A DNA stretch of 60,591 nt from Oculatellaceae cyanobacterium bins.114 (GTDB lineage: Bacteria; Cyanobacteriota; Cyanobacteriia; Elainellales; Elainellaceae): NCBI GenBank assembly GCA_033764315.1, contig JANRJA010000097.1, positions 1 to 60,591 on the forward strand, written 5' to 3'. A model generated the notes under the pieces. The model searched no databases, was not told the DNA's origin, and saw nothing but the letters and a program-made list of their open reading frames with translations. This document shows, in pieces, positions 38,227 to 60,591 of this stretch (within the stretch, counting starts at the first letter, position 1; the number at the start of each line of letters is the position of its first letter). The position numbers and the translations under genes were made by a program.

Positions 38227-38536
38227 GACGGTATCAGGGGGCAAGGGACGGGGGATGCAGATGTCATTATAAAAATTACGCCAGCCCTGACCGAAATCAG
38301 AACTGGCGAGATCAAAACTTAATTAGATTAATTCTGCATCACTTACCCTGGAGGGGGTGAGTGATCAGCCGTTGGTCAGGCTGTTGATGGCTTGAAGTAA
38401 ATTCAATCCTTAAACAAGGGGCTGATAGAGTTTGATGAAATAATTTGGCAAATTCCTGAGTGCAGACATCTTGCCACAAGCGAGACGATCGCCCTTCTTG
38501 TGCCAAATCTATTATTTAACCTTCACAAACCCCTTG

Positions 38537-44060: not shown

Positions 44061-45503
44061 TTATACCGTTGCTTCAGTTTTTTTGATTTGCATCACGATG
44101 AGCGTCATGTCATCTTCAGCCCGATTTGACTTACCGATAAACTGTTGTACCTGGTTAAATAAGTGATCCAAAATTGCTTGTGGGCTTTCGCAGTGTTGGC
44201 ATGCCCACTGAAACGCCTGTCTCAGGTTCTCTTCATCAAAGCGATCGCCATTTTGGTTGGCAGCATCAGTAAAGCCATCGGTGTAATAGATCAGGGTGTC
44301 ACCTGGATGCAACTGCACTTGAGCATCGTGATATTGTGTATCGACATCTAAGCCAATCAACATGCCCAGAGTGTCTAGTCGCTGAATGGTCTGAGTTTCT
44401 GCTTGCCAAAGCAACGGTGGATTGTGAGCCGCATTGCTATAGTGCAATGTTTGCGTTTGGGTGTCGTACTCGGAGTAAAACAGCGTCACAAACCGATTGG
44501 AGTTTTCCAAATCGGTATACATGACGTGATTCAAATGTTGCAAGATGCGAGCGGGTGAATGTCGGTTAAGCACCTCTGCCCGCAGCATGCCCCGCAGCAT
44601 CGTCATGATTAATCCAGCAGGAACCCCCTTACCCATGACATCGCCGATCGCCACACTCCAGCGATCAGACTCATAAACCGCCCCTTTTTTAGAGCGAATC
44701 TGGTCATAATTAGCGGGGATAAAGTCGTAATAGTCACCCCCCACCCGGCTAGCGGGTTGAGTCCGGGCGGCGACTTCGGTGCCCATGATGTTGGGGCAGT
44801 GACGTGGCAAGAGTTGCAGTTGAATTTCAGCCCCAATCTCTAGCTCGCGATCGAGTCGTTCTTTTTTACGCAATTCGACCGTGAGTTCGTCATTGGCGAT
44901 CGCCACAGCTGTTTGGTCAGCGACGAGCCGCACCAATTTTTGCCGAGTCTCTGTCCATTCATAGTCTGGGTCACGGCTAAACACATAGAGCCGTCCTCGC
45001 TCGGTGCTTTTGGTCAAAATCGCTGTACCAAACAGGTGCACATCAGGTCCCAATGACAGACTGACCTGGTGGTCAAGCGTTGCCGTCAGATTGTTGGTCA
45101 GGGTCAACGCCTGCCCTGGTGTTGTAGAAGATAATCCGGCAATTTGGCGAGTTGCTGCCTCTAACGCCTTACGAATGTCTTGGCATTGCGTATTGTCTTG
45201 ACAGTGCAACCGCTCTAACCGCATTTGCCCATCGGGCTTAAATAGAATTAAGGCTCCGCCATCGGCATCGGTGACTCGGCTGGCGATGAGCGGGGTTAAT
45301 TCTAAAAACTGCTTGAGATTGTTAAAACTTCGTAACGCAAAGCCCAACGATCCCAACAAATCTTGAATTTTATTTTGCTCTCGCCGCAACCGAGACACCA
45401 ACTCCTTGAGCGCAAACACAGGTGTCATCTCTGGTGAGGGAGTGCCACTGCCAGTGATATCAGACGATTGGGAAGGTTGTCTCGGAACAGGTAGAGAAGT
45501 CAT
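44061..45503 (-). CDS. GAF + PP2C/SpoIIE Ser/Thr phosphatase (RsbU-like)
   Basis: LVADQTAVAI (GAF end), ELEIGAEIQ, VGGDYYD, IGDVMGKG, YTDG, DDMTL. Confidence 0.95.
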   Translation of the reverse strand: MTSLPVPRQPSQSSDITGSGTPSPEMTPVFALKELVSRLRREQNKIQDLLGSLGFALRSFNNLKQFLELTPLIASRVTDADGGALILFKPDGQMRLERLHCQDNTQCQDIRKALEAATRQIAGLSSTTPGQALTLTNNLTATLDHQVSLSLGPDVHLFGTAILTKSTERGRLYVFSRDPDYEWTETRQKLVRLVADQTAVAIANDELTVELRKKERLDRELEIGAEIQLQLLPRHCPNIMGTEVAARTQPASRVGGDYYDFIPANYDQIRSKKGAVYESDRWSVAIGDVMGKGVPAGLIMTMLRGMLRAEVLNRHSPARILQHLNHVMYTDLENSNRFVTLFYSEYDTQTQTLHYSNAAHNPPLLWQAETQTIQRLDTLGMLIGLDVDTQYHDAQVQLHPGDTLIYYTDGFTDAANQNGDRFDEENLRQAFQWACQHCESPQAILDHLFNQVQQFIGKSNRAEDDMTLIVMQIKKTEATV

Positions 45504-45657: not shown

Positions 45658-48600
45658 CTACGCCACTAAGGTAATTTGATCTGGAATTAGCTGAGCAGTT
45701 CCTTGGAGAGTGGCGATCGCTATGGGTAAGCCTGCCCCAAGTCCATCGGCATCAAACTGCAACACTCCAGTGCTGGTGTTAAACAAAAAGGTGGCTAAAG
45801 TGCTCTCAGGGTTTGCATCGATTCGTAATACTCCTGTCGCATCAACCCCATTCAGGCTTGTTCCAGCGACCAGACTGCCACCAAACCCAGCGGCTGAAAT
45901 TTCCAGGCGATCGTCTGGGGTGAAGTCAGTGAGGATATCCACACCCTCACGAGGTAAGTTATAGCGAAAGGTATCACTTCCCCCTTTCCCGGTTAAAACA
46001 TCATTGCCTTCTCCCCCTATTAACACTGTGGCACTGTCATCGCCAGTGAGGATGTCACTAAATCGGGTGCCAACCAGGGTTTGGGCGTTGTCTGAACGTG
46101 TAATGCGAGCAGCTACATCTCCTGAAAAGACAGGGTTTCCCAGACTGCGCCAGTCGCCACCCTCAACAAAGGCTCCATTTTGAAACGTCCCTGTGGTGAC
46201 GTCATACCACAACACTTGAAACGTGCCTGTGACACTCCGCAAATCCAGGTTTACTATGCCACCATTTCTGAGGTAGATGGCATAAGCGGCTCCGGTTTGT
46301 GCAAAAGCATAGTTGCTGGTGGTGGTAGAGAGCAAGGCATTGTTAGGTGCCATGTTGTTAAAGGGTAATGTCTCTAGCAGTTGCCGCGTGCGACGCATGT
46401 CGTCCCACATCGATTCGATCGCCTGAAATCGCAGGTTGGGTGAATAGTTGAAGAAGAGTTCGTGCTGTCCACCTGCGAGATAAATTGGGTACAACACTTC
46501 CGAGCGAAACTTGACACGAGTTGACTCGCTATTGTCAAAGATTCTGGGAATCTCATCCAACATGATAGGAATGGGACGACCCCGCTCAATGCTGCGGCGA
46601 CGATTGGTTTCGATCAGGTTGTTTAAGTTGGGTAGTCCTGTAGTTGCCAAGTTGAAGTTGCCCCCAGGGAGCGTCTGCATACTGGTCAGATCAAAGTTTG
46701 GGTTTCCCAGGAAAGGCCACGGTACATTTTGTCGATGAACAGTAACGGGGTGATCGTAGGGGTCGATTGCCCGAAGTTTGGCTGCAAAATCGATTTGTTG
46801 TTGGTCGGTGTAAATTTCATTGGCTTCTTCACCCAGGTTCCAGATGATGGCAGGGTGATAGCCAAATCGAGCCACCATTTCACGGTAATAGACATCGTGG
46901 TCAAAGCTACGCCAAGCCGAGTCATCGGTTAAAACCCAATGTAGAGCCACTCCTCGCTGTTGGGCATAACTAAAAACGGTTTCCCACTCTTGCAGCTTGT
47001 TAATGTTAAACCGATTGCTATTTGCTTTTGCTTCGGTCGAGGTTGAGCCTAACCAAGGCCAGGTATCTCTGCTATCACTATCAACGTTGTTACTGACAAA
47101 GTAGATACTGTTGACCCCTCGACTGCTGAGATAGTCGATCGCCTCCAGGCGTTCTTGCATACTGCCAAAGGCGGTGCCTAAAAAGTTTTCAGGGTCATCG
47201 GTTCCGGTTTTAATCCAATAATCGCCATCAGCAAACTTGAGGTAGTGCCCTCCAGCATATTGCAGGCGACCCCACCGCAAAAAGTTGGGTGCTGAGGCAG
47301 GAGCCTCTGTGACAACAAAGGAACCACTGTAACCATTTAAAGCAGTGTCGCTGCTGCTGGCGGTAAACGTCCAGCCTCCTAGAGCATTGGCACTAAAGCG
47401 CACCTTCCAGACATTGCCAGAGGTTCCCCCATTGCCATCACCGTCATAAAAAGCTGGGACGGTAAAGGTTCCACCCGGTCCAGTAAAAGTGACATTGACA
47501 TTAGTCAAAAAGGGATTGTCTGAAGCCGTCACATTGGTGTTGCGTCCTCTTAGAACAATCTCAACTTTGTGCCATTCATGAAAACTACCAATTGCCCCCA
47601 AATCTTTTGGGTTGGTGTTGCCTGGAGGAGCTAACACTGAAAAGCTGCCCAGACTGCCTGCTGCAACAGCGTTACCTGCGGTATCTGTCACCTGCCTGGC
47701 TTGCATGGCTACTGTATAAGTACCGTTGTCAGTCTGATCCCAACTGCCGTCTGGAGCGTTGATCCGATAGGTTGAGGTGCGGGGAGAACCTGTGCCAGTC
47801 GGGGTGTAACTAATGAAGGTTGCCTGTTGACTGGTTCCATTGGGGCTAATGACGGAAATATCGTTGTTGTCTAAGGTGGCAACATTGATGGCAACTGCAT
47901 CGCTATAGGTGACGGTAAAGGTGTAGTCACTGCCGCCACTGGTGGTGATGTTGGATGCAGTGAGGCTAGCCGTAGGAGCGATCGCATCAGGGGGTGGAGC
48001 ATTTCCCACAGGTACAAATTCGATGTAGTCAACCCGAGCATGTTCTTGTGATTGCTCTGTTCCAAAAATATCAATACGGGTTCCTGGAGTGACATCCAGA
48101 GTGCCAACAAAGCGATTGACTCGATTTTGATTGCTAATGCCACTAGAGTTGAGATTTTGATTGAGCGTCCAGGCAGCGTTAAACCCAGTGCCAATCTGTA
48201 AACGCATCTGAGCCTGCCCGTCACTCTCATCAAAGTAGTTGACATAGACGTTATAACGTTGTGCTATGCCTGAGAAGCTGGTGAAAGCGGAACCAGATTC
48301 TGTTGTGCCGCTACCAACTAAGCTCAATAAAGCCCGATTGGAAGCGATGCTGTTATTTTCAATACGATATCCCGATCGCGTCATTGATTCAGCTTCGATG
48401 CGGATGGGAGTCCCAGTTGGGGGTGGCATCACATCATCATCGGCGATCGCTACTGTTGTAGTAGTTTGAGTGCCCAGAACAAAGCCATTGGTAGGATCGC
48501 TCAAACTCAGATTGATGGTTTCGCTGCCCTCAACCAGATCATCATTCACAACCGGAATGACAGCGGTTAAGGCAGATTCACCATCTGCAAATGTGACCGT

Positions 48601-49566
48601 GATGGGGGTGTCGGTGTAGTCGTTGGTGGCGATCGCAGTGCCATTACGCAGGTTAATTGTGACCGTTGCACCAACATTGATGTCCCCGGTACGAGCTACG
48701 GTAACGGTGTTGGGAGTAGTGCCGTTTTCATTCACTGTAAAACTGGCAGCACCAAAAGAAATTACTCCAGATAGAGGTGGAGTGTCATTATCAATAATGG
48801 TGAGGGTAGCGGTAGTTTGAGTTCCTACGGTTGCTCCCCCCGTGAGATTGCTCAGAGTCAAGTTAACGGTTTCATTGCCCTCGACATCGGTGTCATTGGT
48901 GATGGGGATCGTCACCGTTTGACTGGTTTGACCCTCAGCAAAGTTGACCACAATCGGAGTGCTGGTGAAGTCGCTGCCAGCCGTTGCCGTGCCATTGGTG
49001 GGAGTTACCGTTGCACTGACCGCTCCACTGCTGCCGCCTGTTCGGGTTACGGTGACGGTAGTAACGGGAGTGCTATTTTCATTAACACTGTAATTAACAG
49101 AGCTAAATGCTAAGGTTCCTGGAGTGGGAGTTGGATTGCTAACTGGAATAAACTCAATGTAGTCAATTCGAGTAGACTCGCCTGCGTTTTCTCGCCCCAA
49201 GATCGAAAGTGTTTGACTCGCATCAACGGTTAATCCACTAGCAATTTGTCGTCTGACAAGTGTCCGGCGGTCGGCTGCTGTACTCGGTAGCGAGGCATTG
49301 AGGTTAATGCCACTAATCAGAGAGCCACCGAGGGAAACTTCGATGCGACCGACACCGTCATTTTCATCAAAGTAGCCGAGGTAGATATCGTAAGTGCCAG
49401 AGGTCAAACCAAACCCTGCTAGTCCTGCCGCTCCTGTGCTGGCGGTGCCAGTTTCATTTGCACTACCACCTGCAAAGCCAATCATGCTTCCACCGGAAGC
49501 AGCCCCACTCGACTCAACTCGAAATCCAACGCGTTGCAAACTTTCGGCTTGAATGCGAGTGATCAT
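45658..49566 (-). CDS. Secreted modular protein A: CBM-like x2, Calx-beta x2, Ig-like, DUF5060 + GH-A-like catalytic domain + collagen-binding-like domain, RTX C-terminus
   Basis: RIQAES..YFDENDG..RIDYIEF; TLAFSS..VNEN..DF..NDTDVEGNETV; FYDGDGNGG..WKVRF; WNLGEE, DPYDHPVTVH, IMLDE; GGEGNDVLTG; no N-terminal signal peptide. Confidence 0.85.
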   Translation of the reverse strand: MITRIQAESLQRVGFRVESSGAASGGSMIGFAGGSANETGTASTGAAGLAGFGLTSGTYDIYLGYFDENDGVGRIEVSLGGSLISGINLNASLPSTAADRRTLVRRQIASGLTVDASQTLSILGRENAGESTRIDYIEFIPVSNPTPTPGTLAFSSVNYSVNENSTPVTTVTVTRTGGSSGAVSATVTPTNGTATAGSDFTSTPIVVNFAEGQTSQTVTIPITNDTDVEGNETVNLTLSNLTGGATVGTQTTATLTIIDNDTPPLSGVISFGAASFTVNENGTTPNTVTVARTGDINVGATVTINLRNGTAIATNDYTDTPITVTFADGESALTAVIPVVNDDLVEGSETINLSLSDPTNGFVLGTQTTTTVAIADDDVMPPPTGTPIRIEAESMTRSGYRIENNSIASNRALLSLVGSGTTESGSAFTSFSGIAQRYNVYVNYFDESDGQAQMRLQIGTGFNAAWTLNQNLNSSGISNQNRVNRFVGTLDVTPGTRIDIFGTEQSQEHARVDYIEFVPVGNAPPPDAIAPTASLTASNITTSGGSDYTFTVTYSDAVAINVATLDNNDISVISPNGTSQQATFISYTPTGTGSPRTSTYRINAPDGSWDQTDNGTYTVAMQARQVTDTAGNAVAAGSLGSFSVLAPPGNTNPKDLGAIGSFHEWHKVEIVLRGRNTNVTASDNPFLTNVNVTFTGPGGTFTVPAFYDGDGNGGTSGNVWKVRFSANALGGWTFTASSSDTALNGYSGSFVVTEAPASAPNFLRWGRLQYAGGHYLKFADGDYWIKTGTDDPENFLGTAFGSMQERLEAIDYLSSRGVNSIYFVSNNVDSDSRDTWPWLGSTSTEAKANSNRFNINKLQEWETVFSYAQQRGVALHWVLTDDSAWRSFDHDVYYREMVARFGYHPAIIWNLGEEANEIYTDQQQIDFAAKLRAIDPYDHPVTVHRQNVPWPFLGNPNFDLTSMQTLPGGNFNLATTGLPNLNNLIETNRRRSIERGRPIPIMLDEIPRIFDNSESTRVKFRSEVLYPIYLAGGQHELFFNYSPNLRFQAIESMWDDMRRTRQLLETLPFNNMAPNNALLSTTTSNYAFAQTGAAYAIYLRNGGIVNLDLRSVTGTFQVLWYDVTTGTFQNGAFVEGGDWRSLGNPVFSGDVAARITRSDNAQTLVGTRFSDILTGDDSATVLIGGEGNDVLTGKGGSDTFRYNLPREGVDILTDFTPDDRLEISAAGFGGSLVAGTSLNGVDATGVLRIDANPESTLATFLFNTSTGVLQFDADGLGAGLPIAIATLQGTAQLIPDQITLVA

Positions 49567-49607
49567 ACAAAATCCTTCTAAACTCTATATTTAAGCTGAG
49601 ACACGAC

Positions 49608-52600
49608 TTACACACCAACGATGATTTGGTTGACGGTGAGATTGGGAGCACCCTGAAGAGTCGCGATCGCTGTTGCAACAAATACTCCTGCCCCGTCTAC
49701 GTCAAAACTCAATAGCCCTGTTGCGGTGTTGTACAACACCGCTCCACTGCTGTCTAGCGCAGCTGGATTAGAACCACTCACAAAACTACCTGTCTCCAGC
49801 TGAGTATTAAGTGCTACTCCAGCAACAAGACTGCCACCAAAGCCAGCGGCTGAAATTTGCAACTTATCATTTGGTTTAAAATTGGCAATTTGATCGACTC
49901 CATCTGCAGGAGTGTTGAAAACAAAGATGTCTGCAGCAGATGTGCCTGAGAGTGTTTCGTTGCCAGGTTGATTGTTAATGGTGTTAACGCCAACACTGCC
50001 CGTCAGTGCATCAGCAGAGGAACCGCTGACTACATTAGAAGGCATTTGCCAGAGCTTGACGGTGCCATCTTCACTGGCTGTCACCATGTATTGCCCATCA
50101 CTAGAGAAGTCAATATATTCCACGCCCTGCGTGTGCACCACAAATTGACCTACCAGACTGAAATCTGAGGTGCGATAGATTCTAAAACCAGTACTCGCGT
50201 CAGGCCCATCATCTTGAAAATCGCCGCCGCCCGTAGCAAGATAACGACCATCCGGTGAAAATGCCACTGCTTCCATATAGGAATCGCCATGAGATAGGGT
50301 TCTAATGGTTGCCCCATCAGATACGCGAAACACTTTAACGACACTTTCTGCCCCGTTGGCTGTGGCAAATAGAGTGCCATCAGCCGATAATCGCACCGAT
50401 TTGATGGAACCCCCGGCGACTGAAGTGGCGGATGAAGCGGTGACACGACGGATTAAGCTGCCATCTGATGTATTAGAAATTCTCACCGTTCGGTCAGCTG
50501 CTCCTGATACCAAGATCTGGCTATCTCGGCTGAAATCAATTGAGTTGACTTCACCACTGTGAGTAATGCGACCGCTGTAGCGCAGTGCCCAAGTTGCGGG
50601 GTTATACATTCTCACATCACTGCCTGCCGGACCCCCAAAATATTGTCCATTGGGTGAAAAAGCAATACCATCGGCTCCTGATGTGCTTAAGGTGCTCAGG
50701 AAAGTGCCATCACTGGCTCGATAAAGTCTAATTCCAGCAGTGTTACCCGCAGCTGCGACTGTTTGACCATCAGGAGAGAAATAAACAGCTTCAATTTCTC
50801 CTTGCTTATTGGTTAACGATCCACTCCAATAGACGCTTTCCCAGACTAGCGAACCGTCACTAACTCGAAAGAGTCTGATTTTGCCATCCCCGGCTCCTGT
50901 GGCAATAAACTGACCATCGGGTGAAAATTCAGCCGTTTCAGTGGTGCCTACGCTCCCTCGTGAATCAACGGCGATCGTCCGCAGTAGAGTTGGTGCTTCA
51001 GAGGAGGGCACATTGATTTGAAACGTCCCGAGCGATCGCCCCAGCGCAGGATTGTTGCTGGTGTCATTCACTTGATTGGGTTGCAGAGAGACGGTATAAG
51101 TGCCGTTCTCATTAAAATTCCAATTGCCATCTCCTGCCATTATCTGATAGGTGGCTGTTCGAGGAGAGCCATTACCAGAGGGAGTCACGCCAACAAAGGT
51201 TGCTGGTTGGTCAAATCCACTAGGTCCTGTAACTCGAATATCACTACCATCTAGGCTTGAGACATCGACTGCGGCGTTATCACTATAAGTCACAGTAAAG
51301 GTATAGTTTGCACCTCCTCCGGTGGTTAGCGTTGGTGCAGTTAGTTGAGCGGTAGGTGGAGTTGTATCAGATGTAGGTGTGCTGACTGGGCGAAACTCGA
51401 TGTAATCGACACGAGCATGCTCACTACTCTGCTCAGTTCCTAAGATCTCTAACAAATCGCCACTGTTAACCACTCGATTAGTAGCGATCGTTCGGATGAC
51501 CCGGTTACTGGTACTAATGCCACCATTGCCTAAGTTTTGATTGAGCGTCCAGCTATCTAGGGTTTGACCTGCCAACTTGACTTGTAGACTGGCTGTGCCA
51601 TCATTTTCATCAAAATAGCTAATGACAATGTCATAGGTACCAGAGGCAAGGCTCAAAGCTCTTGATGCCGTTCCTGTTTCACCCGTTGCTCCGCCAACAA
51701 AGCTAATGAGGTTTCCACCAGAGGCAATAGAGCTAGCCTCAACCCGATAGCTACCTGTGCGAGTCAGACTCTCGGCCTCAATCCGAGTGGTTGCAGGTGG
51801 AGTATCATTATCAACAATCGTCAGAGTGGCAGTAGTTTGAGTTCCCAGGGTGGCTCCTCCGGTGGGATTACTCAAGGTCAAATTAACGGTTTCATTGCCC
51901 TCGACATCTGTGTCATTGACCAGGGGAATAGTGACCGTTTGAGTGGTTTGGCCGTCAGCAAAGTTGATCACAATCGGCGTGCTGGTGAAGTCACTGCCAG
52001 CCGTTGCTGTTCCATTAGTGGGCGTGACGGTAGCACTAACCGCTCCACTGTTGCCGCCTGTTCTTGTTACCGTGACGGTAGTAATGGGAGTGCCATTCTC
52101 ATTGGCACTATAGGTTGCATTGCTAAACGCTAGCGTGCCAGGATTAGGAGTAAAGTCATTATCAACAATCGTCAGAGTGGCAGTAGTTTGAGTTCCTAGT
52201 GTGGCTCCCCCCGTGGGATTGCTCAGAGTCATGTTGACGGTTTCATTGCCCTCGACATCGGTGTCATTGGTGATGGGAATAGTGACAGTCTGACTGGTTT
52301 GACCCTCGGCAAAGTTGACCACGATTGGAGTGCTGGTGAAGTCACTGCCAGCGGTTGCCGTTCCATTGGTGGGAGTAACGGTGGCACTGACCGCTCCACT
52401 GCTGCCGCCTGTTCTTGTTACCGTGACGGTGGAAACAGGAGTGCCGTTTTCGTTGACACTGTAAGTGGCAGAGCTAAAAGCTAGAGTGCCAGGAGTAGGA
52501 GTCGGATTGCTAACTGGGACAAACTCAATGTAATCAATTCGAGTAGACTCGCCTAAGTTTTCTCGCCCAAAAATAGAGAGGACATTGGTGGCATCAACGG

Positions 52601-52937
52601 TTAGTGCACTGGCGATTTGTCGTCTGACAAAGGTACGACGGTCAGCGGCAGTCCTGGCGAAACTAGCATTGAGGTCAATGCCACTAATGAGAGAGCCACC
52701 GAGGGAAACTTCGATGCGACCGACACCGTCATTTTCATCAAAGTAGCCGAGGTAGACATCGTAAGTGCCAGAAGTCAGACCAAAGCTAGCGAGTCCTCCA
52801 GCTCCTGTGCTGGCGGTGCCAGTTTCATTTGCACTACCACCTGCAAAGCCAATCATGCTTCCACCGGAGGCAGCCCCACTCGACTCAACTCGAAATCCAA
52901 CTCGTTGCAAACTTTCTGCTTGAATGCGAGTGGTCAT
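49608..52937 (-). CDS. Secreted modular protein B: CBM-like x2, Calx-beta x2, Ig-like, WD40 propeller, degenerate RTX C-terminus
   Basis: Same cassettes as its neighbours; about 7 FSPDG..ATG..DG.I/V.L WD40 blades; C-terminal YNTATGLLSFDVDG..IATLQGAP. Confidence 0.87.
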   Translation of the reverse strand: MTTRIQAESLQRVGFRVESSGAASGGSMIGFAGGSANETGTASTGAGGLASFGLTSGTYDVYLGYFDENDGVGRIEVSLGGSLISGIDLNASFARTAADRRTFVRRQIASALTVDATNVLSIFGRENLGESTRIDYIEFVPVSNPTPTPGTLAFSSATYSVNENGTPVSTVTVTRTGGSSGAVSATVTPTNGTATAGSDFTSTPIVVNFAEGQTSQTVTIPITNDTDVEGNETVNMTLSNPTGGATLGTQTTATLTIVDNDFTPNPGTLAFSNATYSANENGTPITTVTVTRTGGNSGAVSATVTPTNGTATAGSDFTSTPIVINFADGQTTQTVTIPLVNDTDVEGNETVNLTLSNPTGGATLGTQTTATLTIVDNDTPPATTRIEAESLTRTGSYRVEASSIASGGNLISFVGGATGETGTASRALSLASGTYDIVISYFDENDGTASLQVKLAGQTLDSWTLNQNLGNGGISTSNRVIRTIATNRVVNSGDLLEILGTEQSSEHARVDYIEFRPVSTPTSDTTPPTAQLTAPTLTTGGGANYTFTVTYSDNAAVDVSSLDGSDIRVTGPSGFDQPATFVGVTPSGNGSPRTATYQIMAGDGNWNFNENGTYTVSLQPNQVNDTSNNPALGRSLGTFQINVPSSEAPTLLRTIAVDSRGSVGTTETAEFSPDGQFIATGAGDGKIRLFRVSDGSLVWESVYWSGSLTNKQGEIEAVYFSPDGQTVAAAGNTAGIRLYRASDGTFLSTLSTSGADGIAFSPNGQYFGGPAGSDVRMYNPATWALRYSGRITHSGEVNSIDFSRDSQILVSGAADRTVRISNTSDGSLIRRVTASSATSVAGGSIKSVRLSADGTLFATANGAESVVKVFRVSDGATIRTLSHGDSYMEAVAFSPDGRYLATGGGDFQDDGPDASTGFRIYRTSDFSLVGQFVVHTQGVEYIDFSSDGQYMVTASEDGTVKLWQMPSNVVSGSSADALTGSVGVNTINNQPGNETLSGTSAADIFVFNTPADGVDQIANFKPNDKLQISAAGFGGSLVAGVALNTQLETGSFVSGSNPAALDSSGAVLYNTATGLLSFDVDGAGVFVATAIATLQGAPNLTVNQIIVGV

Positions 52938-53185
52938 ACAAACCCCTTTAGGTAGAGTTTCTTAAAACAACTCAGTCAATGATTTGTTAGGAAATCAGTG
53001 GTTTTACTGAGTAAACAAGATCTATCTTATAAAGTTTTTTACTTTCAGTTGAGAATAAAAATTAATAACCTGTGAAGACATTGTGAAGCTTATCACTAGT
53101 CTTATTGTCTTAAAAGTAGTCAGGTATGCTTACCATCCTTGACAGTACTTTACTCTACTGCTTTGAGTGGGATGGCAGAAAACTG

Positions 53186-56100
53186 CTAAACACCAATGAC
53201 GATTTGGTTGACGGTGAGATTAGGAGCACCTTGGAGAGTGGCGATCGCCACTGTTGCCCCAATCCCTAAACCATCGCCATCAAAGCTAACCACTCCAGTG
53301 GTGGTGCTATAAAGCACATGCGGATTGGTGCTGACTGCCGTTGGATTGGCATCACTAACAAACACACCACTAGAGTTATCAACGGTGCTCAACAACATGC
53401 CAGCTACCAACCCATTAAAACCACTGGCTGACAACTGCAACACATCTTGATTGCTGAAATCTGTAATGGTGTCTCCTCCGTGATTTGCTTGCTGATAGAC
53501 AAAGGTGTCAGCTCCTGCGCCCCCTGTCAATAGGTCACTGCCTGCGCCTCCCTCAATGGAGTTGACACTGGCGTTGCCAACGAGGGTGTCTTGAAAGGGG
53601 GAGCCGATGATGTTTTCAATATTGATCAGGGTGTCGCGATCGCTAATTGCCTCATACCAGCGATCGCCCAGTTCGTCATAACCCGCTTGCGTGGGGTGTA
53701 GACCATCGGTGGTCAGATCATTCAATTCTAGTGCCCCACCCACATCTACAAACGCGACGCGCCGATTGTTTGCGGCGGCGGTATTAACGATGCCTGAAAT
53801 CTCGTCGTTGAAAGCATCAATGCGAGCATTACGGACTTCATCTTCAGCTGGTGAAACGGTGGATACCACCAACAGAGTATTGGGAACCCGTGTGGTGATT
53901 TCGGTGATTAGAGCTTCCAAGTCACTTTTCATTTCATTTAGAGAGATGAAGTCATTGCCAGCATCATTGGTGCCAATCATCATCAAAATGACATCTGGTT
54001 GATAAGACTCTAAGAATCCGGGATCATCCACGAGACCGCGAATCTGATCCATCGTCCAGCCTCGATGTCCTTCATGATTGGGGTCAAAGGGGTTGGCAGG
54101 GCCGTTGCTTAAAGACCCTACAAAATCGATTCCAAACCCGTCTTGCGTAAAGCGGTTAAACAGTTGAATGCGATAGGCACCGGGAACCGGATTGGTGGTG
54201 TGCTCTCCAGCGGTAATCGAGTCACCCAACGGCATGATCTTGGGAGTAGATAGTCCTCCATAGATTGGCTTCAACACGCGACCATTGCTAAGATTCGCCA
54301 CAATGCCAGTGGTGGCTTGAGAATAATCAGCGGTGTCAAATCCGTGACCACCCTCTAGTGTGTTGTTGCCTGCCCCCCCATCCAAAATGTCATCGCCTGC
54401 TTCACCGATTACGATGTCATCTCCACCCACGCCATGAATCACATTAGCGATCGCATCCCCTACCAATGTTTCAGATGCCTCAGTACCGACAATCGGAGGA
54501 GTAGCTGTAGTAGCGTTGCCATTGGCAATATTGACCACTTCGATCGCGACATCGTTTGCTCCCAATGGGGAGGTTAAGGTACGCCAATCGCCCCCTTCGA
54601 TAGAACCCCCTGCTGTATATTGACCTGTGGTGACGTTATACCACCGCACCCGATAGGTGCCTGTGACGTTGCTGAGGTCTAAATCTACCGATCCCCCGTT
54701 TCTTAAATAAATACCGTAGGCAATCCCCGTTTGCGCAAAAGCATAGTTGCCATTGGTATTGGAGAGCAGCGCATTGTTGGGTGCCATTGTGTTGAAGGGC
54801 AACGCCTCCACAAACTGACGGGCATAGCGCATGTCAGTCCACATAGGTTCAACCTGGGTGGGTGTCACCGTACCGCCTGCGCCTGTGACTGGGTCCTGGT
54901 AATAGTAATGCAACTCATAAATACCGCCCGCCAAGTAAGTGGGATACAACACCTCCGATCGCATTTTGAGACGAGTGGAGTTGTTCACTACATCCACGCG
55001 AGGCGTTTCATCGATGCTAATCGGAATCGGTCGTCCCTGAGTGATGCTGGCGTTCCGATTATTGATAACAAAGGTGTTGACGTTTGGGATTGTAGTCGTT
55101 GAGAACAGTTCAGCTCCACCCGGTGGATCGATTTCGATACTGGTGAGGTCAAAGTTGCTATTGCCAAAAAATTGCCAGGTGTTGCTGGTGGAACGGTGTA
55201 CCGTAATTGGATGATCGTAGGGATCGAGGCTGCGGAGTTGACTGGCAAACTGACGCAGTTGGGCATCCGTGTAGTTTTCTTCCGCTTCTTCCCCAATATT
55301 CCAGATAATGCCAGGAAGATGACCAAACCGAGCAATCATTTCCCGATAGTAGAGAGTGCGATCGTACCCACTCCAGGCGTTGTCATCTTCTAGCACCATA
55401 TGAATCACCATGTTCCGACTTTGAACATAGGTGAAAAAGTCTTCCCACTGCTGCAATCGACTAATATCAAAGCGGGTTGAACTGCCAGTGGAGTTGGTCT
55501 TAGCGGTGGCAAGTGTATCTCCTAGCCAAGGCCAAGCATCATTGCCATCGCCATCCACATTATTGGTGATGATATAAACCGAATTCACGCCCCGACTCGC
55601 CAGGTAATCAATCGTGGCTCTCTTCGCATTAAAGTCTCCCAGTGCCGTTCCTAAAATGGCCTCAGGATCATCTGCTCCCCCCTTGATCCAATATCCGCCA
55701 TCAGCAAAGCGCAGATAGTGGCTATCGGCATACAATAGCCGTCCTTGCCGAAAGAGATCGGGGGCAGAAGTCGGAGTGGTGTTGACGGTAAAGGAACCGT
55801 TGTAACCGTTGAGCAATGAATTGGTACTGGATGTGGTGAAGCTCCAGTTGCCGATCGAGTTGGCACTAAACCGCACTTTCCAGATGTTGCCTGTGCTGCC
55901 TCCATTGCCATTTCCATCGTAAAAGGCAGGCACCGTGAAGGTGCCTCCAGGTCCAGTGAAGGTGACATCCACTGAGATTAGAAATGGGTTGGGATTTCCA
56001 CTCTCACTACTTTGAGGTCCAGGCAGATTGATCTCAATTTCTTGCCACTTGCCAACCGTACCAACCGCCCCCAGATCACGCTCGTTATCAGTAACGTTAA

Positions 56101-58753
56101 CCGTCAGGGTAGGAATCGAAATAGTGTTGAAGCGAGGGTCGGTGCTGGTGGTGGTGTGGCTAATGGTGCCCGTGTGAACAGGGGATTCAAATACGGTGTC
56201 ATTGACCGCATTGACTGTTATTGTGCGGGGTTGATCCCAATCTGTGGGTGTAAAGGTGAGTGAGGTCAAGTTGGTGCTCACCTGACTGTTAGAGGCGATC
56301 GCCACTGTGACATTTGCAGTTGGCTGACTATTTAAAACAAGGGTGTAAGTGTCTGAGTTGCCGCCTTCGGTTACATCCGTGCTGTTGCCAGAGGGGGCGA
56401 TCGTAATTCCTCCAGGTGGCGTAGGGGTGCTGACTGGGCGAAACTCAACGTAGTCTATCCGAGCATGCTCCTCTGTTTGCTCAGTACCCAAAATCTCCAG
56501 CAAGTCTCCATTATTGACAAAGCGACTAGTGGCGATCGTTCGGATAACTCGGGTGCCATTGCTAATACCAGATCCTCCCAAGTTTTGGTTGAGCGTCCAG
56601 CTATCGAGGGTTTGACCCGCTAACTTGACCTGCACACTTGCCGCCCCGTCATTTTCATCAAAGTAACTAATGACAATGTCATAGGTGCCGGAGGCAAGGC
56701 TGAGATTGCCAAACGCCGTTCCTGTTTCTCCGGTTGCTCCTCCGACAAAGCTGATGAGCCGCCCACCCGAAGCGATGGAGTTTGATTCTGAGCGATAGCT
56801 ACCCGTGCGAGTCAAACTCTCGGCTTCAATCCGGATGGGTGGAGGTGGAGTGTCATTATCAACAATCGTCAGAGTAGCAGTGGTTTGAGTTCCCAGCGTG
56901 GCTCCCCCAGTGGGATTGCTCAAACTCAAGTTAACGGTTTCATTACTTTCAACTTGAGTGTCATTGAGGATGGGGATTGTCACTGTTTGAGTGGTTTGAC
57001 CCTCAGCAAAGTTGACCACAATTGGAGTGCTAGTGAAGTCACTTCCAGCCGTTGCCGTCCCATTGGTGGGAGTAACGGTGGCACTGACCGCTCCAATGCT
57101 ACCCCCTGTTCGCGTTACGGTGACAGTAGTAACGGGAGTGCCGTTTTCATTGACACTGTAAGTGGCAGAGCTAAAGGCTAGAGTGCCAGGACTATCATTA
57201 TCGATAATTGTTAGAGTGGCAGTGGTTTGAGTTCCCAGGGTGGCTCCTCCAGTGGGATTGCTCAAACTCAAGTTAACGGTTTCATTCCCTTCGACATCGG
57301 TGTCGTTTGTGATGGGGATCGTCACTGTTTGAGTGGTTTGACCCTCAGCAAAGTTGACCACAATTGGAGTGCTGGTGAAATCATTTCCAGCCGTTGCCGT
57401 TCCGTTTGTTGGAGTTACTGTTGCACTAATCGCTCCACTGCTGCCGCCTGTTCGCGTTACGGTGACGGTAGTAACAGGAGTGCCATTTTCATTGACACTG
57501 TAAGTGGCAGAGCTAAAAGCTAGAGTGCCGGGAGTAGGAGTTGGATTGCTGACTGGGCGAAACTCGATGTAATCGACACGAGCATGTTCAACGCCCTGCT
57601 CAGTCCCTAAAATTTCTAGCAGGTCGCCACTGTTAACCACTCGATTAGTAGCGATCGTGCGGATGACCCGGTTACTGGTACTAATGCCACCATTGCCTAA
57701 GTTTTGATTGAGCGTCCAGCTATCTAGCGTCTGACCTGCCAACTTGACTTGCAAACTGGCTGTGCCATCATTTTCATCAAAATAGCTAATGACAATGTCA
57801 TAGGTGCCAGAAGCAAGGCTCAAAGCTCTTGATGCCGCTCCTGTTTCACCCGTTGCTCCGCCAACAAAACTAATGAGGTTTCCACCAGAGGCAATGGAGC
57901 TGGCCTCAATTCGATAGCTGCCAGTGCGAGTTAAGCTTTCTGCTTCAATTCGAGTGGTTGCAGGTGGAGTGTTACTATCAATAATGGTTAGGATGGCAGT
58001 AGTTTGAGTTCCTAATGTGGCTCCTCCGGTGGGATTGCTCAGAGTCAAGTTAATGGTTTCATTGCCCTCGACGTCGGTGTCATTTGTGATGGGGATCGTG
58101 ACCGTTTGACTGGTTTGACCCTCAGCAAAGTTGACCACAATTGGAGTGCTGGTGAAGTCACTGCCAGCCGTTGCCGTTCCGTTTGTGGGAGTTACTGTTG
58201 CACTAACGGCTCCACTACTACCGCCTGTTCGCGTTACGGTGACAGTAGTAACAGGAGTGCCATTTTCATTGACACTGTAAGTGGCAGAGCTAAATGCTAA
58301 GGTTCCTGGAGTGGGAGTCGGATTATTGACTGGGACAAACTCGATGTAGTCAATTCGAGTAGACTCGCCTAAGTTTTCTCGCCCAAAAATAGAGAGGACA
58401 TTGGTGGCATCAATCGTCAGTCCACTAGCGATTTGTCGTCTGACAAAGGTACGACGGTCAGCGGCAGTACTCGGCAGGGAGGCGTTAAGGTCAATGCCAC
58501 TAATGAGAGAGCCACCGAGGGAAACTTCGATGCGACCGACACCGTCATTTTCATCAAAGTAGCCGAGATAGACATCGTAAGTGCCAGAGGTCAGACCAAA
58601 GCTAGCAAGTCCTCCAGCTCCTGTGCTGGCGGTGCCAGTTTCATTTGCACTACCACCTGCGAAGCCGATTAAGCTACTGCCCGAAGCAGCACTGTTTGAC
58701 TCAACTCGAAATCCAACGCGTTGCAAACTTTCTGCTTGAATGCGAGTGGTCAT
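53186..58753 (-). CDS. Secreted modular protein C: CBM-like x3, Calx-beta x3, DUF5060 + GH-A-like domain, RTX repeats with embedded SGNH/GDSL esterase
   Basis: ATG at 58753 with AAGGAG RBS; WNIGEE, ISIDE; PLGDSIT, GHRG, IGTND, DGLHP; GGAGxD repeats. Confidence 0.87.
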   Translation of the reverse strand: MTTRIQAESLQRVGFRVESNSAASGSSLIGFAGGSANETGTASTGAGGLASFGLTSGTYDVYLGYFDENDGVGRIEVSLGGSLISGIDLNASLPSTAADRRTFVRRQIASGLTIDATNVLSIFGRENLGESTRIDYIEFVPVNNPTPTPGTLAFSSATYSVNENGTPVTTVTVTRTGGSSGAVSATVTPTNGTATAGSDFTSTPIVVNFAEGQTSQTVTIPITNDTDVEGNETINLTLSNPTGGATLGTQTTAILTIIDSNTPPATTRIEAESLTRTGSYRIEASSIASGGNLISFVGGATGETGAASRALSLASGTYDIVISYFDENDGTASLQVKLAGQTLDSWTLNQNLGNGGISTSNRVIRTIATNRVVNSGDLLEILGTEQGVEHARVDYIEFRPVSNPTPTPGTLAFSSATYSVNENGTPVTTVTVTRTGGSSGAISATVTPTNGTATAGNDFTSTPIVVNFAEGQTTQTVTIPITNDTDVEGNETVNLSLSNPTGGATLGTQTTATLTIIDNDSPGTLAFSSATYSVNENGTPVTTVTVTRTGGSIGAVSATVTPTNGTATAGSDFTSTPIVVNFAEGQTTQTVTIPILNDTQVESNETVNLSLSNPTGGATLGTQTTATLTIVDNDTPPPPIRIEAESLTRTGSYRSESNSIASGGRLISFVGGATGETGTAFGNLSLASGTYDIVISYFDENDGAASVQVKLAGQTLDSWTLNQNLGGSGISNGTRVIRTIATSRFVNNGDLLEILGTEQTEEHARIDYVEFRPVSTPTPPGGITIAPSGNSTDVTEGGNSDTYTLVLNSQPTANVTVAIASNSQVSTNLTSLTFTPTDWDQPRTITVNAVNDTVFESPVHTGTISHTTTSTDPRFNTISIPTLTVNVTDNERDLGAVGTVGKWQEIEINLPGPQSSESGNPNPFLISVDVTFTGPGGTFTVPAFYDGNGNGGSTGNIWKVRFSANSIGNWSFTTSSTNSLLNGYNGSFTVNTTPTSAPDLFRQGRLLYADSHYLRFADGGYWIKGGADDPEAILGTALGDFNAKRATIDYLASRGVNSVYIITNNVDGDGNDAWPWLGDTLATAKTNSTGSSTRFDISRLQQWEDFFTYVQSRNMVIHMVLEDDNAWSGYDRTLYYREMIARFGHLPGIIWNIGEEAEENYTDAQLRQFASQLRSLDPYDHPITVHRSTSNTWQFFGNSNFDLTSIEIDPPGGAELFSTTTIPNVNTFVINNRNASITQGRPIPISIDETPRVDVVNNSTRLKMRSEVLYPTYLAGGIYELHYYYQDPVTGAGGTVTPTQVEPMWTDMRYARQFVEALPFNTMAPNNALLSNTNGNYAFAQTGIAYGIYLRNGGSVDLDLSNVTGTYRVRWYNVTTGQYTAGGSIEGGDWRTLTSPLGANDVAIEVVNIANGNATTATPPIVGTEASETLVGDAIANVIHGVGGDDIVIGEAGDDILDGGAGNNTLEGGHGFDTADYSQATTGIVANLSNGRVLKPIYGGLSTPKIMPLGDSITAGEHTTNPVPGAYRIQLFNRFTQDGFGIDFVGSLSNGPANPFDPNHEGHRGWTMDQIRGLVDDPGFLESYQPDVILMMIGTNDAGNDFISLNEMKSDLEALITEITTRVPNTLLVVSTVSPAEDEVRNARIDAFNDEISGIVNTAAANNRRVAFVDVGGALELNDLTTDGLHPTQAGYDELGDRWYEAISDRDTLINIENIIGSPFQDTLVGNASVNSIEGGAGSDLLTGGAGADTFVYQQANHGGDTITDFSNQDVLQLSASGFNGLVAGMLLSTVDNSSGVFVSDANPTAVSTNPHVLYSTTTGVVSFDGDGLGIGATVAIATLQGAPNLTVNQIVIGV

Positions 58754-59425
58754 GCAAACTCCTTCCAATTAGGGTTAGTTTGGATCTGTCTTTGAAGGCG
58801 AGCAATAGATAGATTTCAAAAAATTGGGGGTGAGATCAATGGGAGTCAAAACAGGTGAAAATTTAATGCAAAATCAGCAGCATAGATTGGATGAACAAAT
58901 ACAACTAAAAATAGTTAGTTGTTCATCCTAATCAAGTTTTTTTGCATCCCCTGTAGAAGACATTTATATGAGCTAAATGCCTTTATTTGCTCAATCGTTC
59001 AGTGCTAAATTACTTCAAATCTTGACGTTGGAGATGAGGGAGTTTCATGTCAGAACATTGTGTGAGTACTTACAAGTGAGTTATGTCTGTGAAGTGCAAA
59101 ATTCCCTTTTAGCAATGCTAGAGAATTGCTTTAAAACGCTTCATAGGGAAAATCTTTCAGTGAATCTACTTCAGTATTGTTTCGATCGCACTGTTCGGGA
59201 TAAAACACGGGATTTTTCATCTTTTTACATAGGAACCTATCTATTTCCCGGATTTTTAGACCGAAATATGACAAATTTCTAGTAAAAGGTGACGTTATAA
59301 AGAACGGGGTCAGTTCAGGAGGATCACGGAATACGGAATGATGCCTTAACTCTTTATACCTGATGTAAGGTAATCTTAAACATCCTTAAATCAGTATCTT
59401 CACTGAAACTTGTGATTTTACAAGG

Positions 59426-59447
59426 GATTTAAGGAATGCCTTAAATC
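59426..59447. promoter_or_regulatory. Palindrome in the AT-rich region upstream of gene C (possible operator)
   Basis: GATTTAAGG-AATG-CCTTAAATC perfect 9-bp IR; additional CCTTAA half-sites at 59344 and 59384. Confidence 0.35.
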
Positions 59448-59615
59448 TTGTATGAAGACTCTAAAGATTAGGGTTATTAACTGCATAAAGCTCAAGAGGG
59501 ATTCTCAAGAGGTTTTTACAAGGTTCCTATCAAAGTTTCATTTTTAATGATTTGTCCTTTTCACTCTGTCCTGCCATATCTCTTAATAACTCCGCCACAG
59601 TTCCTATCTCAATTC

Positions 59616-60591
59616 TTACAGGATGACATTTCGGGCAGTGAGAGTGCTGGCGGTTATACGCTCTAATGTTAAAAGCGGTCTGAACACCAACCCTCCAGTG
59701 CTGCCATTGGGATCAATGCTAACGACCGTGTTTGCCCCAACCTGACGGAATCGGACATAGTCAGACAACGTACCAGGGCGATCGCTTGATCCCACAATGA
59801 CCCGACTGAGATCGAGGGTATCGAGTAACACGTCAAAGCCTCGAATGCGATCGCCTCCCTCTCGAATCGAGTTATAGACAAAGCGATCGCTCCCGGCACC
59901 CCCAAACATCAGGTCAATTCCGGCTCCACCCATGAAGATGTCGTCTCCAGCACCTCCATAGAGGTGATCGTTACCCGCCCCTCCATTCAAACTATCACTA
60001 CCATTGGCACCGTAAAGGCGATCGTTGCCAGTGCCACCCACAATGGTGTCGTTGCCGTTGAACCCTAATAAAATATCGGCTCCCTTTCGGCCTGAGATCA
60101 CATCACATCCCTGGCTGCCACGCAACCGATTGGCTCGATTGTTACCCAATCGCCGCACCCCTGGAGTACAGGTATCAGCCGGTAATGTGGGATCAGCACC
60201 CGGTAGAGGGCCAGGAGTCGTGGTAGGAGTGCCTTCTGGAACCGGAGTTTGAGTCGGAATAACAGGCAAGGGCAATCGCCATAGTTTGACAGTGCCATCT
60301 TCGCTGGCTGTAGCAACATAACGACCATCGGGGGAGAAATCGATGTATTCAATGCCTTGAGTGTGCTCAGTGAACTGTGCCACCAGGGCAAAATCGGAAG
60401 TGCGATAGAGCCTCAAACCTCGATTAGCCCCTGCGGGGATTTCTTCAGAGCCACCGCCTCCGGTGGCCAGATACTTGCCATCGGGAGAGAATGCGACGGC
60501 TTCGAGCAAGCGATCTTCGTGAGGTAAGGTGGCTAACAGGGTACCATCACTAAACCGATAAACCTTGGCCATTTGTTCTGAGCCATTAGCC
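59616..60591 (-). CDS. Secreted modular protein D (5' end outside window): WD40 propeller + RTX Ca-binding repeats + type I secretion C-terminal domain
   Basis: WD40 blades paralogous to protein B; GGTGNDRLYG, GGAGNDHLYG, GGAGIDLMFG; DTLDLS..YVRFRQVGANTVVSIDPNGS. Confidence 0.88.
   Translation of the reverse strand, partial: ANGSEQMAKVYRFSDGTLLATLPHEDRLLEAVAFSPDGKYLATGGGGSEEIPAGANRGLRLYRTSDFALVAQFTEHTQGIEYIDFSPDGRYVATASEDGTVKLWRLPLPVIPTQTPVPEGTPTTTPGPLPGADPTLPADTCTPGVRRLGNNRANRLRGSQGCDVISGRKGADILLGFNGNDTIVGGTGNDRLYGANGSDSLNGGAGNDHLYGGAGDDIFMGGAGIDLMFGGAGSDRFVYNSIREGGDRIRGFDVLLDTLDLSRVIVGSSDRPGTLSDYVRFRQVGANTVVSIDPNGSTGGLVFRPLLTLERITASTLTARNVIL

Follow-up and report, generated by a model that had tools for sequence, protein, structure and literature searches.

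Tandem genes for modular exoproteins, probably of the RTX/type I secretion kind, join young scaffold cassettes to older payloads in an Elainellaceae cyanobacterium

The closest described parallel to the locus reported here comes from Rhizobium leguminosarum, in which the type I secretion system (T1SS) PrsDE exports the Rap proteins (RapA2, RapD and others) and the Ply glycanases (PMC9298526, PMC3034196). In the accounts given by these sources, the Rap and Ply proteins bind and process extracellular polysaccharide (EPS) in a Ca2+-dependent manner, their genes do not adjoin those of the exporter, and one polysaccharide-binding module is found on several substrates with different partners, glycanases included (PMC9298526, PMC3034196). 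One of the two also describes cyanobacteria as the group with the most predicted RTX (repeats in toxin) genes and T1SSs as exporting non-RTX glycanases in Rhizobium (PMC3034196). Here we analyse four tandem genes, A to D, at one end of contig JANRJA010000097.1 of Oculatellaceae cyanobacterium bins.114. The contig, C27 of a draft genome of 251 contigs and 6.64 Mb, was examined over its entire 60,591 bp, which we call the window. We consider the locus to be, with fair probability, a lineage-specific tandem array of modular cyanobacterial exoproteins of the RTX/type I secretion kind.

The array resembles the PrsDE substrates in design; no sequence homology is claimed. A shared module that may bind polysaccharide stands on several proteins with different partners, and the genes likewise lie apart from exporter genes. 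The Rhizobium module is cadherin-like (Ra/CHDL), whereas that of the array is a jelly roll resembling carbohydrate-binding modules (CBMs) of families 6, 35 and 36 and is combined with Calx-beta domains; the Rhizobium glycanases are of the lyase or polygalacturonase type, whereas the array carries a DUF5060/GH-A unit (GH, glycoside hydrolase), an SGNH domain and WD40 propellers; and the Rhizobium genes are dispersed, whereas the array genes are in tandem. The cyanobacterial proteins oscillin, SwmA and Sll1951 are alike in having Gly/Asp-rich repeats and, as RTX proteins, a T1SS route in the account of PMC3034196. These are S-layer, fibril or motility proteins, many of them with long repeat regions, whereas in A, B and C the repeats number 0-7 and the payloads are of enzyme or propeller type. 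Sll1180/Sll1181 are reported to export Sll1951 (Agarwal and colleagues, 2018, as listed in PMC11053131). Giant RTX adhesins of the LapA/MpIBP type also combine Ca2+-type beta-sandwich extenders, ligand-binding modules and a C-terminal RTX/T1SS signal. They are much larger, have an N-terminal retention module and serve in adhesion, whereas the extenders of the array are few and its heads are enzymes. The design is therefore already known in principle, from the shared binding module of Rhizobium and from the abundance of modular RTX proteins in cyanobacteria. What is new is an unnamed CBM-like family, DUF5060-GH and WD40 payloads on RTX scaffolds, and a clear recent spread of cassettes at a locus shared within a genus.

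A first-pass annotation, made from the letters of the window, had proposed four co-oriented genes with a common N-terminal start in three of them. We found minus-strand open reading frames (ORFs) D, C, B and A head to tail (Table 1), and A, B and C all begin with M(I/T)TRIQAESLQRVGFRVES. Modules were mapped with Pfam and with profiles built on copies from the same genome. As the annotation had stated, the numbers of CBM-like modules (N-modules, numbered N1 to N3 from the N-terminus) and Calx-beta domains vary: A and B have two of each and C has three of each, plus one beta domain, X.

The array was built by module-level recombination, in which young scaffold cassettes were joined to much older payloads and tails. 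Synonymous divergence (dS) between copies was 0.27-0.47 for N1, 0.37-0.77 for the main Calx type and 0.35 between N2 of B and the second C module, whereas the Ig-like, GH and WD40 domains and the tails gave values of 1.3-2.6 or were saturated; by this measure the front cassettes are by far the more recent part. The ratio of nonsynonymous to synonymous divergence (dN/dS) in the young cassettes was ~0.05-0.2, so that they are under purifying selection. Cassette copies are 80-91% identical in DNA, and the tracts of high identity stop at module borders. Beneath the paired Calx-beta domains lie tandem duplications with 85-88% matches, in B (51805-52502, period 351 bp) and in C (56853-57533, period 342 bp).

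A tree of 32 modules, 12 from this genome and 20 from six relatives, was used to place the copies (modules sampled per matches: same-genus genome G001, 6/6; G011, 6/7; G020, 4/7; G012, 2/4; G017, 1/2; G034, 1/6). N1 of A, B and C formed one clade with 100/100 support, a stem of 0.75 and tips of 0.024-0.029, and none of the 20 modules from the six relatives fell inside it. Relative to the modules sampled from these genomes, the N1 head is a genome-specific clade that was copied onto three genes. B-N2, C-N2 and C-N3 grouped with a module of a B-like gene of G001 (94/93), and other module paralogues of the genome paired one-to-one with G001 copies.

Gene content at this locus differs between two genomes of one genus. 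The SpoIIE-type gene next to A has an orthologue in G001 (94% identical; L042 18082-19524) that also lies beside an array, in the same position. There it is preceded by WD40-RTX proteins of 533 and 543 aa and by a 1173-aa N-Calx-WD40-tail protein with about 5 Calx copies, as counted by eye from the translation; the GH payload was not found in G001. Among 40 other related genomes the GH unit is present in three, and the N-module in 12, at 2-7 copies each versus 12 in the source genome. The closest relative of the GH unit, in G011, has the order N-N-X-GH-RTX-RTX-tail without SGNH or Calx, and C therefore resembles the G011 type with an SGNH domain between two RTX blocks and with Calx cassettes.

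The window ends with the contig, and gene D is therefore cut. What is left of it, the 3' part, encodes the final blades of the WD40 domain, then a Pro/Thr linker, then seven or more canonical RTX nonapeptides, and ends in a TIGR03661 tail. Neither the 5' half of D nor counterparts of the G001 genes that flank the G001 array on the gene D 5' side were found elsewhere in the source assembly. From the G001 relatives of 533 and 543 aa, D is most likely ~540 aa long and without scaffold, that is, with no CBM and no Calx. The common anchor that the annotation ascribed to the array thus holds for A, B and C but not for D, the G001 relatives of which have neither module.

At the level of the fold, the proposal that the N-module is a CBM-like jelly roll was borne out by structure prediction. 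The AlphaFold2 model of N1 of A (predicted local distance difference test, pLDDT, 92.3) matched 116 Protein Data Bank (PDB) chains at E<=0.001 in Foldseek. The top match was 7ehg, the xanthan lyase module MiXBM (E 3e-8, template-modelling score, TM, 0.70), followed among others by 2vzp, 7ay3, 1w0n, 8j3y and 1gmm (CBM35, CBM36 and CBM6; E up to 2.5e-5), at sequence identities of 10-22% and TM 0.6-0.7. MiXBM belongs with the xanthan lyase of Microbacterium sp. XT11, as described in PMC10881899. The matches also included Cry toxin domain III, which is a jelly roll of this type as well. The 12 aligned copies in the genome, seven in the array, two on C41 and one each on C106, C100 and C51, share the invariant motif Y(F/Y)DE(N/S/T)DG. 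The N1 sequence had no match in PDB at E<=10, and the sole Pfam match of the window copies was a weak one to Endotoxin_C (13-18 bits).

By its profile matches, the N-module belongs to a large unnamed family without a Pfam model. At thresholds of E<=0.001, E<=1e-10 and E<=1e-30 the profile search returned 2080, 1543 and 603 representative clusters, respectively, and single proteins held as many as 11 copies; a limited literature search found no paper on the family. We scanned for Pfam partners in 45 of the top 67 matches, namely those of <=1368 aa, with the window proteins left out. GDSL domains were found in 14 of the 45, HemolysinCabind in 11, Big_9/cadherin-like domains in 6, Calx-beta in 5, polysaccharide lyase, PA14 and CBM96 in 2 each, and DUF5060 in 1, while 8 had no partner found in Pfam. 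CBM_35 or CBM_6 models were reached at E<=1e-8 by two of the 45, one of which, P0050, scored above both cut-offs. Mixing and matching with sugar-active partners is therefore a trait of the whole family, beyond the array locus. Two paralogues in the source genome carry the CBM-like module at their extreme C-terminus: a WD40-PA14-CBM protein (L005 352-2295 (-), G000:C106; 648-codon frame) and a protein with 3 Ig-like domains (L004 4600-6288 (+), G000:C100; 563-codon frame).

The hydrolase, SGNH and propeller payloads named by the annotation were all recovered, the first as a GH-A type domain with intact acidic motifs, the second with intact catalytic blocks and the third as WD40, as judged from sequence and models. 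The DUF5060-GH units of A and C are 59% identical and appear to share with BVU_0362, the GH140 apiosidases and ManDH5 a three-part fold in which a (beta/alpha)8 barrel lies between an N-terminal and a C-terminal beta-sandwich. With the model of the unit (pLDDT 94.9), the top Foldseek match was 4n0r, BVU_0362 (E 1e-25, TM 0.74), which is the nearest solved structure and has no known activity; next came the GH5 mannanase ManDH5 (9gmj, TM 0.67), the GH5 structural-genomics entry 4qfu (0.60) and the GH140 structures 8t9w and BT_1012 5msy (both TM 0.58), all at 12-19% sequence identity. A profile of 25 sequences searched against PDB gave 4n0r, a putative glycoside hydrolase, at 6.6e-14 and the apiosidase 8t9w at 2.8e-12. 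N255, E258, E259, D349 and E350 were invariant in 25/25 sequences and come directly after predicted strands 252-255 and 347-349, and the motifs WN(I/L)GEE and (L/I)DE(I/T)P are retained in both A and C. Enzymes of clan GH-A have two catalytic carboxylates, after strands 4 and 7, and two carboxylates of the unit are putatively assigned as catalytic from this general rule, not from residue-by-residue mapping. We read the GH payload as a probable active enzyme of the clan GH-A type, nearest to BVU_0362, GH5 and GH140.

Among 7999 scored candidates, 590 were homologues of the GH unit at E<=1e-5. Most of the 120 listed stand alone, are ~450-830 aa long and carry PF16586, usually together with PF12904 and in some cases with PF13204, which we take to be the GH140 catalytic domain; their source name, where given, is 'DUF5060 domain-containing protein', from metagenome-assembled genomes (MAGs) of Chloroflexota. 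A scan of genome contigs with the GH unit gave 3 loci only, at 33-36% identity (Chloroflexota, Chloroflexi and Anaerolineae). Unlike these DUF5060 proteins, the unit of the array is embedded in an RTX scaffold. Our limited literature search returned nothing relevant on DUF5060.

The SGNH domain is confined to C among the array genes, as predicted. SGNH enzymes are defined by block I (GDS), block III (GxND) and block V (DxxH), and in C all three are intact (GDSIT 1510, with its Ser at 1512, GTND 1594, DGLH 1683), with a PF13472 score of 68.5 bits. The WD40 payloads of B and D, likewise anticipated, share 63% identity across 110 aa. Complete WD40-RTX proteins of the D type are uncommon: among the 120 clusters listed, 7 align over 98% of the query, some of them under the source name 'type I secretion C-terminal target domain-containing protein'. 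A limited literature search found no paper on WD40 proteins with type I secretion in cyanobacteria. The WD40 subfamily of B and D recurs in export contexts within the source genome. On C239 (G000:C239:49641-56218; L007, L008), a WD40 paralogue of 374 aa with a Sec-type leader and a C-terminal hydrophobic tail lies ~3 kb upstream of a peptidylprolyl isomerase (PPIase)-like gene, which is followed by an exporter gene of the cyclic nucleotide (cNMP)-C39-ATP-binding cassette (ABC) type above the HlyB-type cut-off. The same PPIase-like/ABC/HlyD order is seen on C127.

Calx-beta assignments are strong (PF03160, 119.6 bits in A, 129.6 in B and 195.4 in C; cut-off 27). The Ig-like YTFTVTYSD domain was rightly placed in both A and B, where the copies are 54% identical. 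A profile of 13 copies had no match in PDB at E<=10, and Pfam gave only weak matches (DUF7196, 0.02; CopC, 0.12). In the ESM Atlas, unnamed clusters scored 0.93-0.95 and Big_12/Big_5/CopC 0.84-0.87, which are leads, not evidence. Three paralogues with Ig repeats (L002 4303-7722, L003 194-2755 and L004 4600-6288) start with a Ser/Thr-rich N-terminal region, and two of them have a similar 'SNLFEQS' stretch there, which may be a common leader or anchoring segment. Domain X of gene C has no Pfam match and recurs in the G011 relative and on contigs C190 and C49 of the source genome at 36-41% identity.

The C-termini of all four proteins appear to be of the RTX/type I secretion kind, as the annotation had proposed, and the strength of this assignment differs between genes: it is clear for D and C, marginal for A and, for B, depends on homology of the tail. 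HemolysinCabind (PF00353) scored 69.4 bits in D and 46.9 in C (cut-off 23). D has a different type of tail, which matched TIGR03661 at 34.4 bits versus a cut-off of 17.6; classing A, B and C as TIGR03661 proteins was rejected, as none of them matched. Their own tail, the last ~120 residues, is 47-52% identical among the three genes and was found in 335 longer proteins. PF00353 is present on 110 of the 120 listed, and B is among the 10 without it. In the listed proteins the tail is joined to GDSL esterases, serralysin-type proteases, GH16, phytase-like and other payloads, several are source-named 'Ca2+-binding RTX toxin-like protein', and many of the source names are those of filamentous cyanobacteria.

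No N-terminal signal peptide was found in A, B or C, in agreement with the annotation: there is no hydrophobic N-terminal stretch, and the jelly roll begins at residue 3. By simple hydropathy, which is not a trained predictor, the maximal Kyte-Doolittle 10-residue mean was 1.0-1.2 for the three N-termini versus 1.95 for a Sec-type paralogue used as control. T1SS transporter genes are, as noted before, absent from the window, in which neither TIGR01846 nor TIGR01843 had a match. Elsewhere in the genome, HlyB-type genes above the TIGR01846 cut-off are present at C239:54230-56203 and C127:29003-31093, and HlyD-type genes above the TIGR01843 cut-off on C45 and C127, the copy on C127 adjoining the ABC gene; the exporter-type loci span C127:27309-31966, C239:53693-56218 and C45:21253-22494.

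On this evidence A, B and C are built on CBM6/35/36-like jelly rolls alternating with Calx-beta spacers, without a Sec signal, and present a GH-A type glycosidase (A and C), an SGNH esterase (C) or a WD40 propeller (B) ahead of a C-terminal beta-roll and tail of the RTX-protein type. D, most likely without the scaffold, combines WD40 and RTX in a shorter protein that has the TIGR03661 tail. In the mechanism that we propose, the unfolded chains would leave the cell C-terminus first through an exporter of ABC protein, membrane fusion protein (MFP) and outer membrane factor (OMF) encoded elsewhere in the genome, and Ca2+ would drive their folding outside. The jelly rolls may then retain the proteins on extracellular polysaccharide, and the glycosidase and esterase would cut or de-esterify the retained polymer. 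The earlier picture of a type-I-secreted glycan toolkit is consistent with the jelly-roll fold, the payload families, the RTX-kind tails and the exporter-type genes outside the window; it does not extend to an anchor in D or to repeats in B.

Several observations weigh against this mechanism. Although the N-module has the predicted beta-jelly-roll fold of CBM6, CBM35 and CBM36 modules, MiXBM among them, its copies in the window reach no Pfam CBM model, with no match to CBM_6 or CBM_35 even at E<=10. PF00353 is marginal in A (20.4 bits for the whole protein and 25.3 for the excised tail, cut-off 23), its nonapeptide repeats were not detected in B, and the tail of A, B and C matches no curated T1SS model. 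The best TolC-like match in the genome is below cut-off (139 vs 225 bits). Both HlyB-type ABC proteins have cNMP-binding and C39 domains and could therefore equally serve peptide export, and none of the exporter-type genes has a link to the array. In the paralogues L004 and L005, the same WD40, Ig-like and CBM-like modules occur without an RTX tail or Sec signal.

Which glycan would be bound is a separate question. We tentatively favour the organism's own sheath or EPS over foreign polysaccharide, because the organism is phototrophic, many of the source names of proteins that share the tail are those of filamentous cyanobacteria and the Rap/Ply proteins set a precedent. That the source is a cyanobacterium and a phototroph is clear from 13 phycobiliprotein matches, where 1 of 14 control genomes (Synechococcus elongatus) matched. 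It is also possible, if rather unlikely in our view, that the secreted proteins act on polysaccharides of mat neighbours or on environmental glycans, in competition or scavenging. Points that tell against our preference speak for this alternative: no EPS- or sheath-synthesis genes were found within the window, the closest relatives of the GH unit are stand-alone proteins of ~550-650 aa and, where named, from Chloroflexota (among the matches listed), the payload is rare among relatives, as its distribution over the 40 genomes and its absence from G001 indicate, and other members of the N-module family carry lyase and pectate-lyase-like domains. Phototrophy argues against a foreign target, as does the distribution of the module family, which is patchy yet recurrent in related cyanobacteria (12/40), and in the well-studied Rhizobium parallel Rap/Ply act on the EPS of the producer, as PMC9298526 describes. 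A mainly structural role at the cell surface seems improbable, whether as adhesins stiffened by Ca2+ or as parts of an S-layer or of fibrils of the oscillin/SwmA/Sll1951 type, with the enzyme-like domains as binding heads. Calx-beta domains, Ig-like extenders and RTX tails are typical of such proteins, oscillin, SwmA and Sll1951 are cyanobacterial RTX proteins tied to motility or the S-layer in the account of PMC3034196, and the WD40 heads have no obvious catalytic role; yet the acidic motifs of the GH unit and the catalytic blocks of the SGNH domain are complete and conserved, and the extenders (2-3 Calx) and RTX repeats are few compared with the 46 repeats given for oscillin (PMC3034196).

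A mis-assembly, in which a short-read draft collapsed or wrongly joined similar cassettes, is highly improbable. The array does lie at a contig end that truncates D, and an 80-bp exact repeat, the longest in the array, links N1 of B and C. Against this stand the DNA identity of cassette copies, no higher than 80-91%, the recurrence of just 341 of 14504 distinct 31-mers within the array, the three long frames that all stay open, and the related array of G001, which lies within a contig of 645 kb. The last 400 bp of C27 had no match elsewhere in the contig. We regard as unlikely that recombination set a newly diverged N1 at the 5' end of each of three older genes for exoenzymes, so that one new extracellular glycan became the target of a glycosidase, of an esterase-glycosidase and of a propeller alike, and that RTX-tailed WD40 proteins are undescribed extracellular propeller lectins or receptors of filamentous cyanobacteria.

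Gene C is counted from the ATG at 58753. A TTG at 58768 was considered as its start and dropped, since GGAAGGAG lies upstream of the ATG and the ATG agrees with the starts of A and B. The 862-bp spacer between D and C is likely the promoter region of C-B-A; those between C and B and between B and A are 248 bp and 41 bp. Promoter and terminator scans returned sites no more frequently than in shuffled controls, and no Rfam family matched anywhere in the window. Other genes of the window include those for trigger factor, ClpP/ClpX, MinC/MinD, ArgH and a PAS histidine kinase, with housekeeping and signalling roles. A single 1610-aa frame at 33412-38244 (-) combines a family 2 glycosyltransferase (GT2; 12-169), a two-partner secretion (TPS) domain (336-537) and a CHAT protease (1316-1608). 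A cytoplasmic GT2 before TPS is odd and may reflect a wrong TTG start or an in-frame fusion of two genes. At 29998-31809 (+) there is a 603-aa ORF without a Pfam family at E<=1e-5.

Table 1. Features of the array and its surroundings, in positions of the window.
Feature	Position	Strand	Description
Gene D, 3' part	59616..60590	-	324 aa, frame still open at contig end
Spacer D/C	58754..59615	-	AT-rich, 862 bp
Gene C	53186..58753	-	1855 aa; N1, Calx, N2, Calx, Calx, N3, X, DUF5060-GH, RTX, SGNH, RTX, tail
C, scaffold	56432..58753	-	CBM-like aa 1-142, 265-401, 638-774; Calx-beta aa 143-262, 402-521, 520-635
C, beta domain X	56078..56431	-	aa 775-892; sequence GGITIAPSGNSTDVTEGG...
C, DUF5060-GH unit	54581..56074	-	WNIGEE aa 1151, IDETP aa 1247
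C, first RTX block	54305..54523	-	~aa 1411-1483
C, putative SGNH/GDSL esterase	53660..54238	-	aa 1506-1698; GDS 1510, GxND 1594, DxxH 1683
C, second RTX block and tail	53189..53638	-	
Gene B	49608..52937	-	1109 aa; N1, Calx-beta, Calx-beta, N2, Ig-like, WD40, tail
B, CBM-like N1	52512..52937	-	aa 1-142; 89-94% identity to N1 of A, C
B, two Calx-beta	51801..52511	-	tandem 351-bp DNA duplication
B, CBM-like N2	51384..51794	-	aa 382-518; 97% identity to second module of C
B, Ig-like domain	51012..51329	-	aa 537-642
B, WD40 beta-propeller	49983..51002	-	aa 646-985
B, tail	49611..49982	-	homologous to A, C tails; without Pfam match
Gene A	45658..49566	-	1302 aa; N1, Calx-beta, Calx-beta, N2, Ig-like, DUF5060-GH, short RTX, tail
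A, CBM6/35/36-like N1	49141..49566	-	aa 1-142; module begins at residue 3
A, two Calx-beta	48430..49140	-	aa 143-262 and 261-379; second divergent, 46-52% identity to others
A, second CBM-like module N2	48007..48411	-	aa 386-520; ~50% identity to N2 type of B, C
A, Ig-like YTFTVTYSD domain	47632..47949	-	aa 540-645
A, predicted DUF5060 beta-sandwich, (beta/alpha)8 barrel and C-terminal beta-sandwich	46147..47601	-	aa 656-1140; WNLGEE aa 909, LDEIP aa 1003
A, few RTX nonapeptides and ~120-aa tail	45661..46146	-	tail common to B, C
SpoIIE/PP2C-type phosphatase gene	44061..45503	-	downstream of A, 154 bp away; same strand as array

Enzymes that cut or de-esterify the sheath and EPS of cyanobacteria are poorly known, and these polymers shape mats, biofilms, gliding and bloom behaviour. 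Candidates for such functions are found at the locus, namely the glycosidase of GH-A type, the SGNH esterase and the large CBM-like family that has no name, along with residues that can be mutated, and the two genomes of one genus with differing arrays provide a natural comparison. It is also a clean case in which scaffold cassettes and payloads of unequal age are found inside single genes, and it informs how modular exoproteins evolve.

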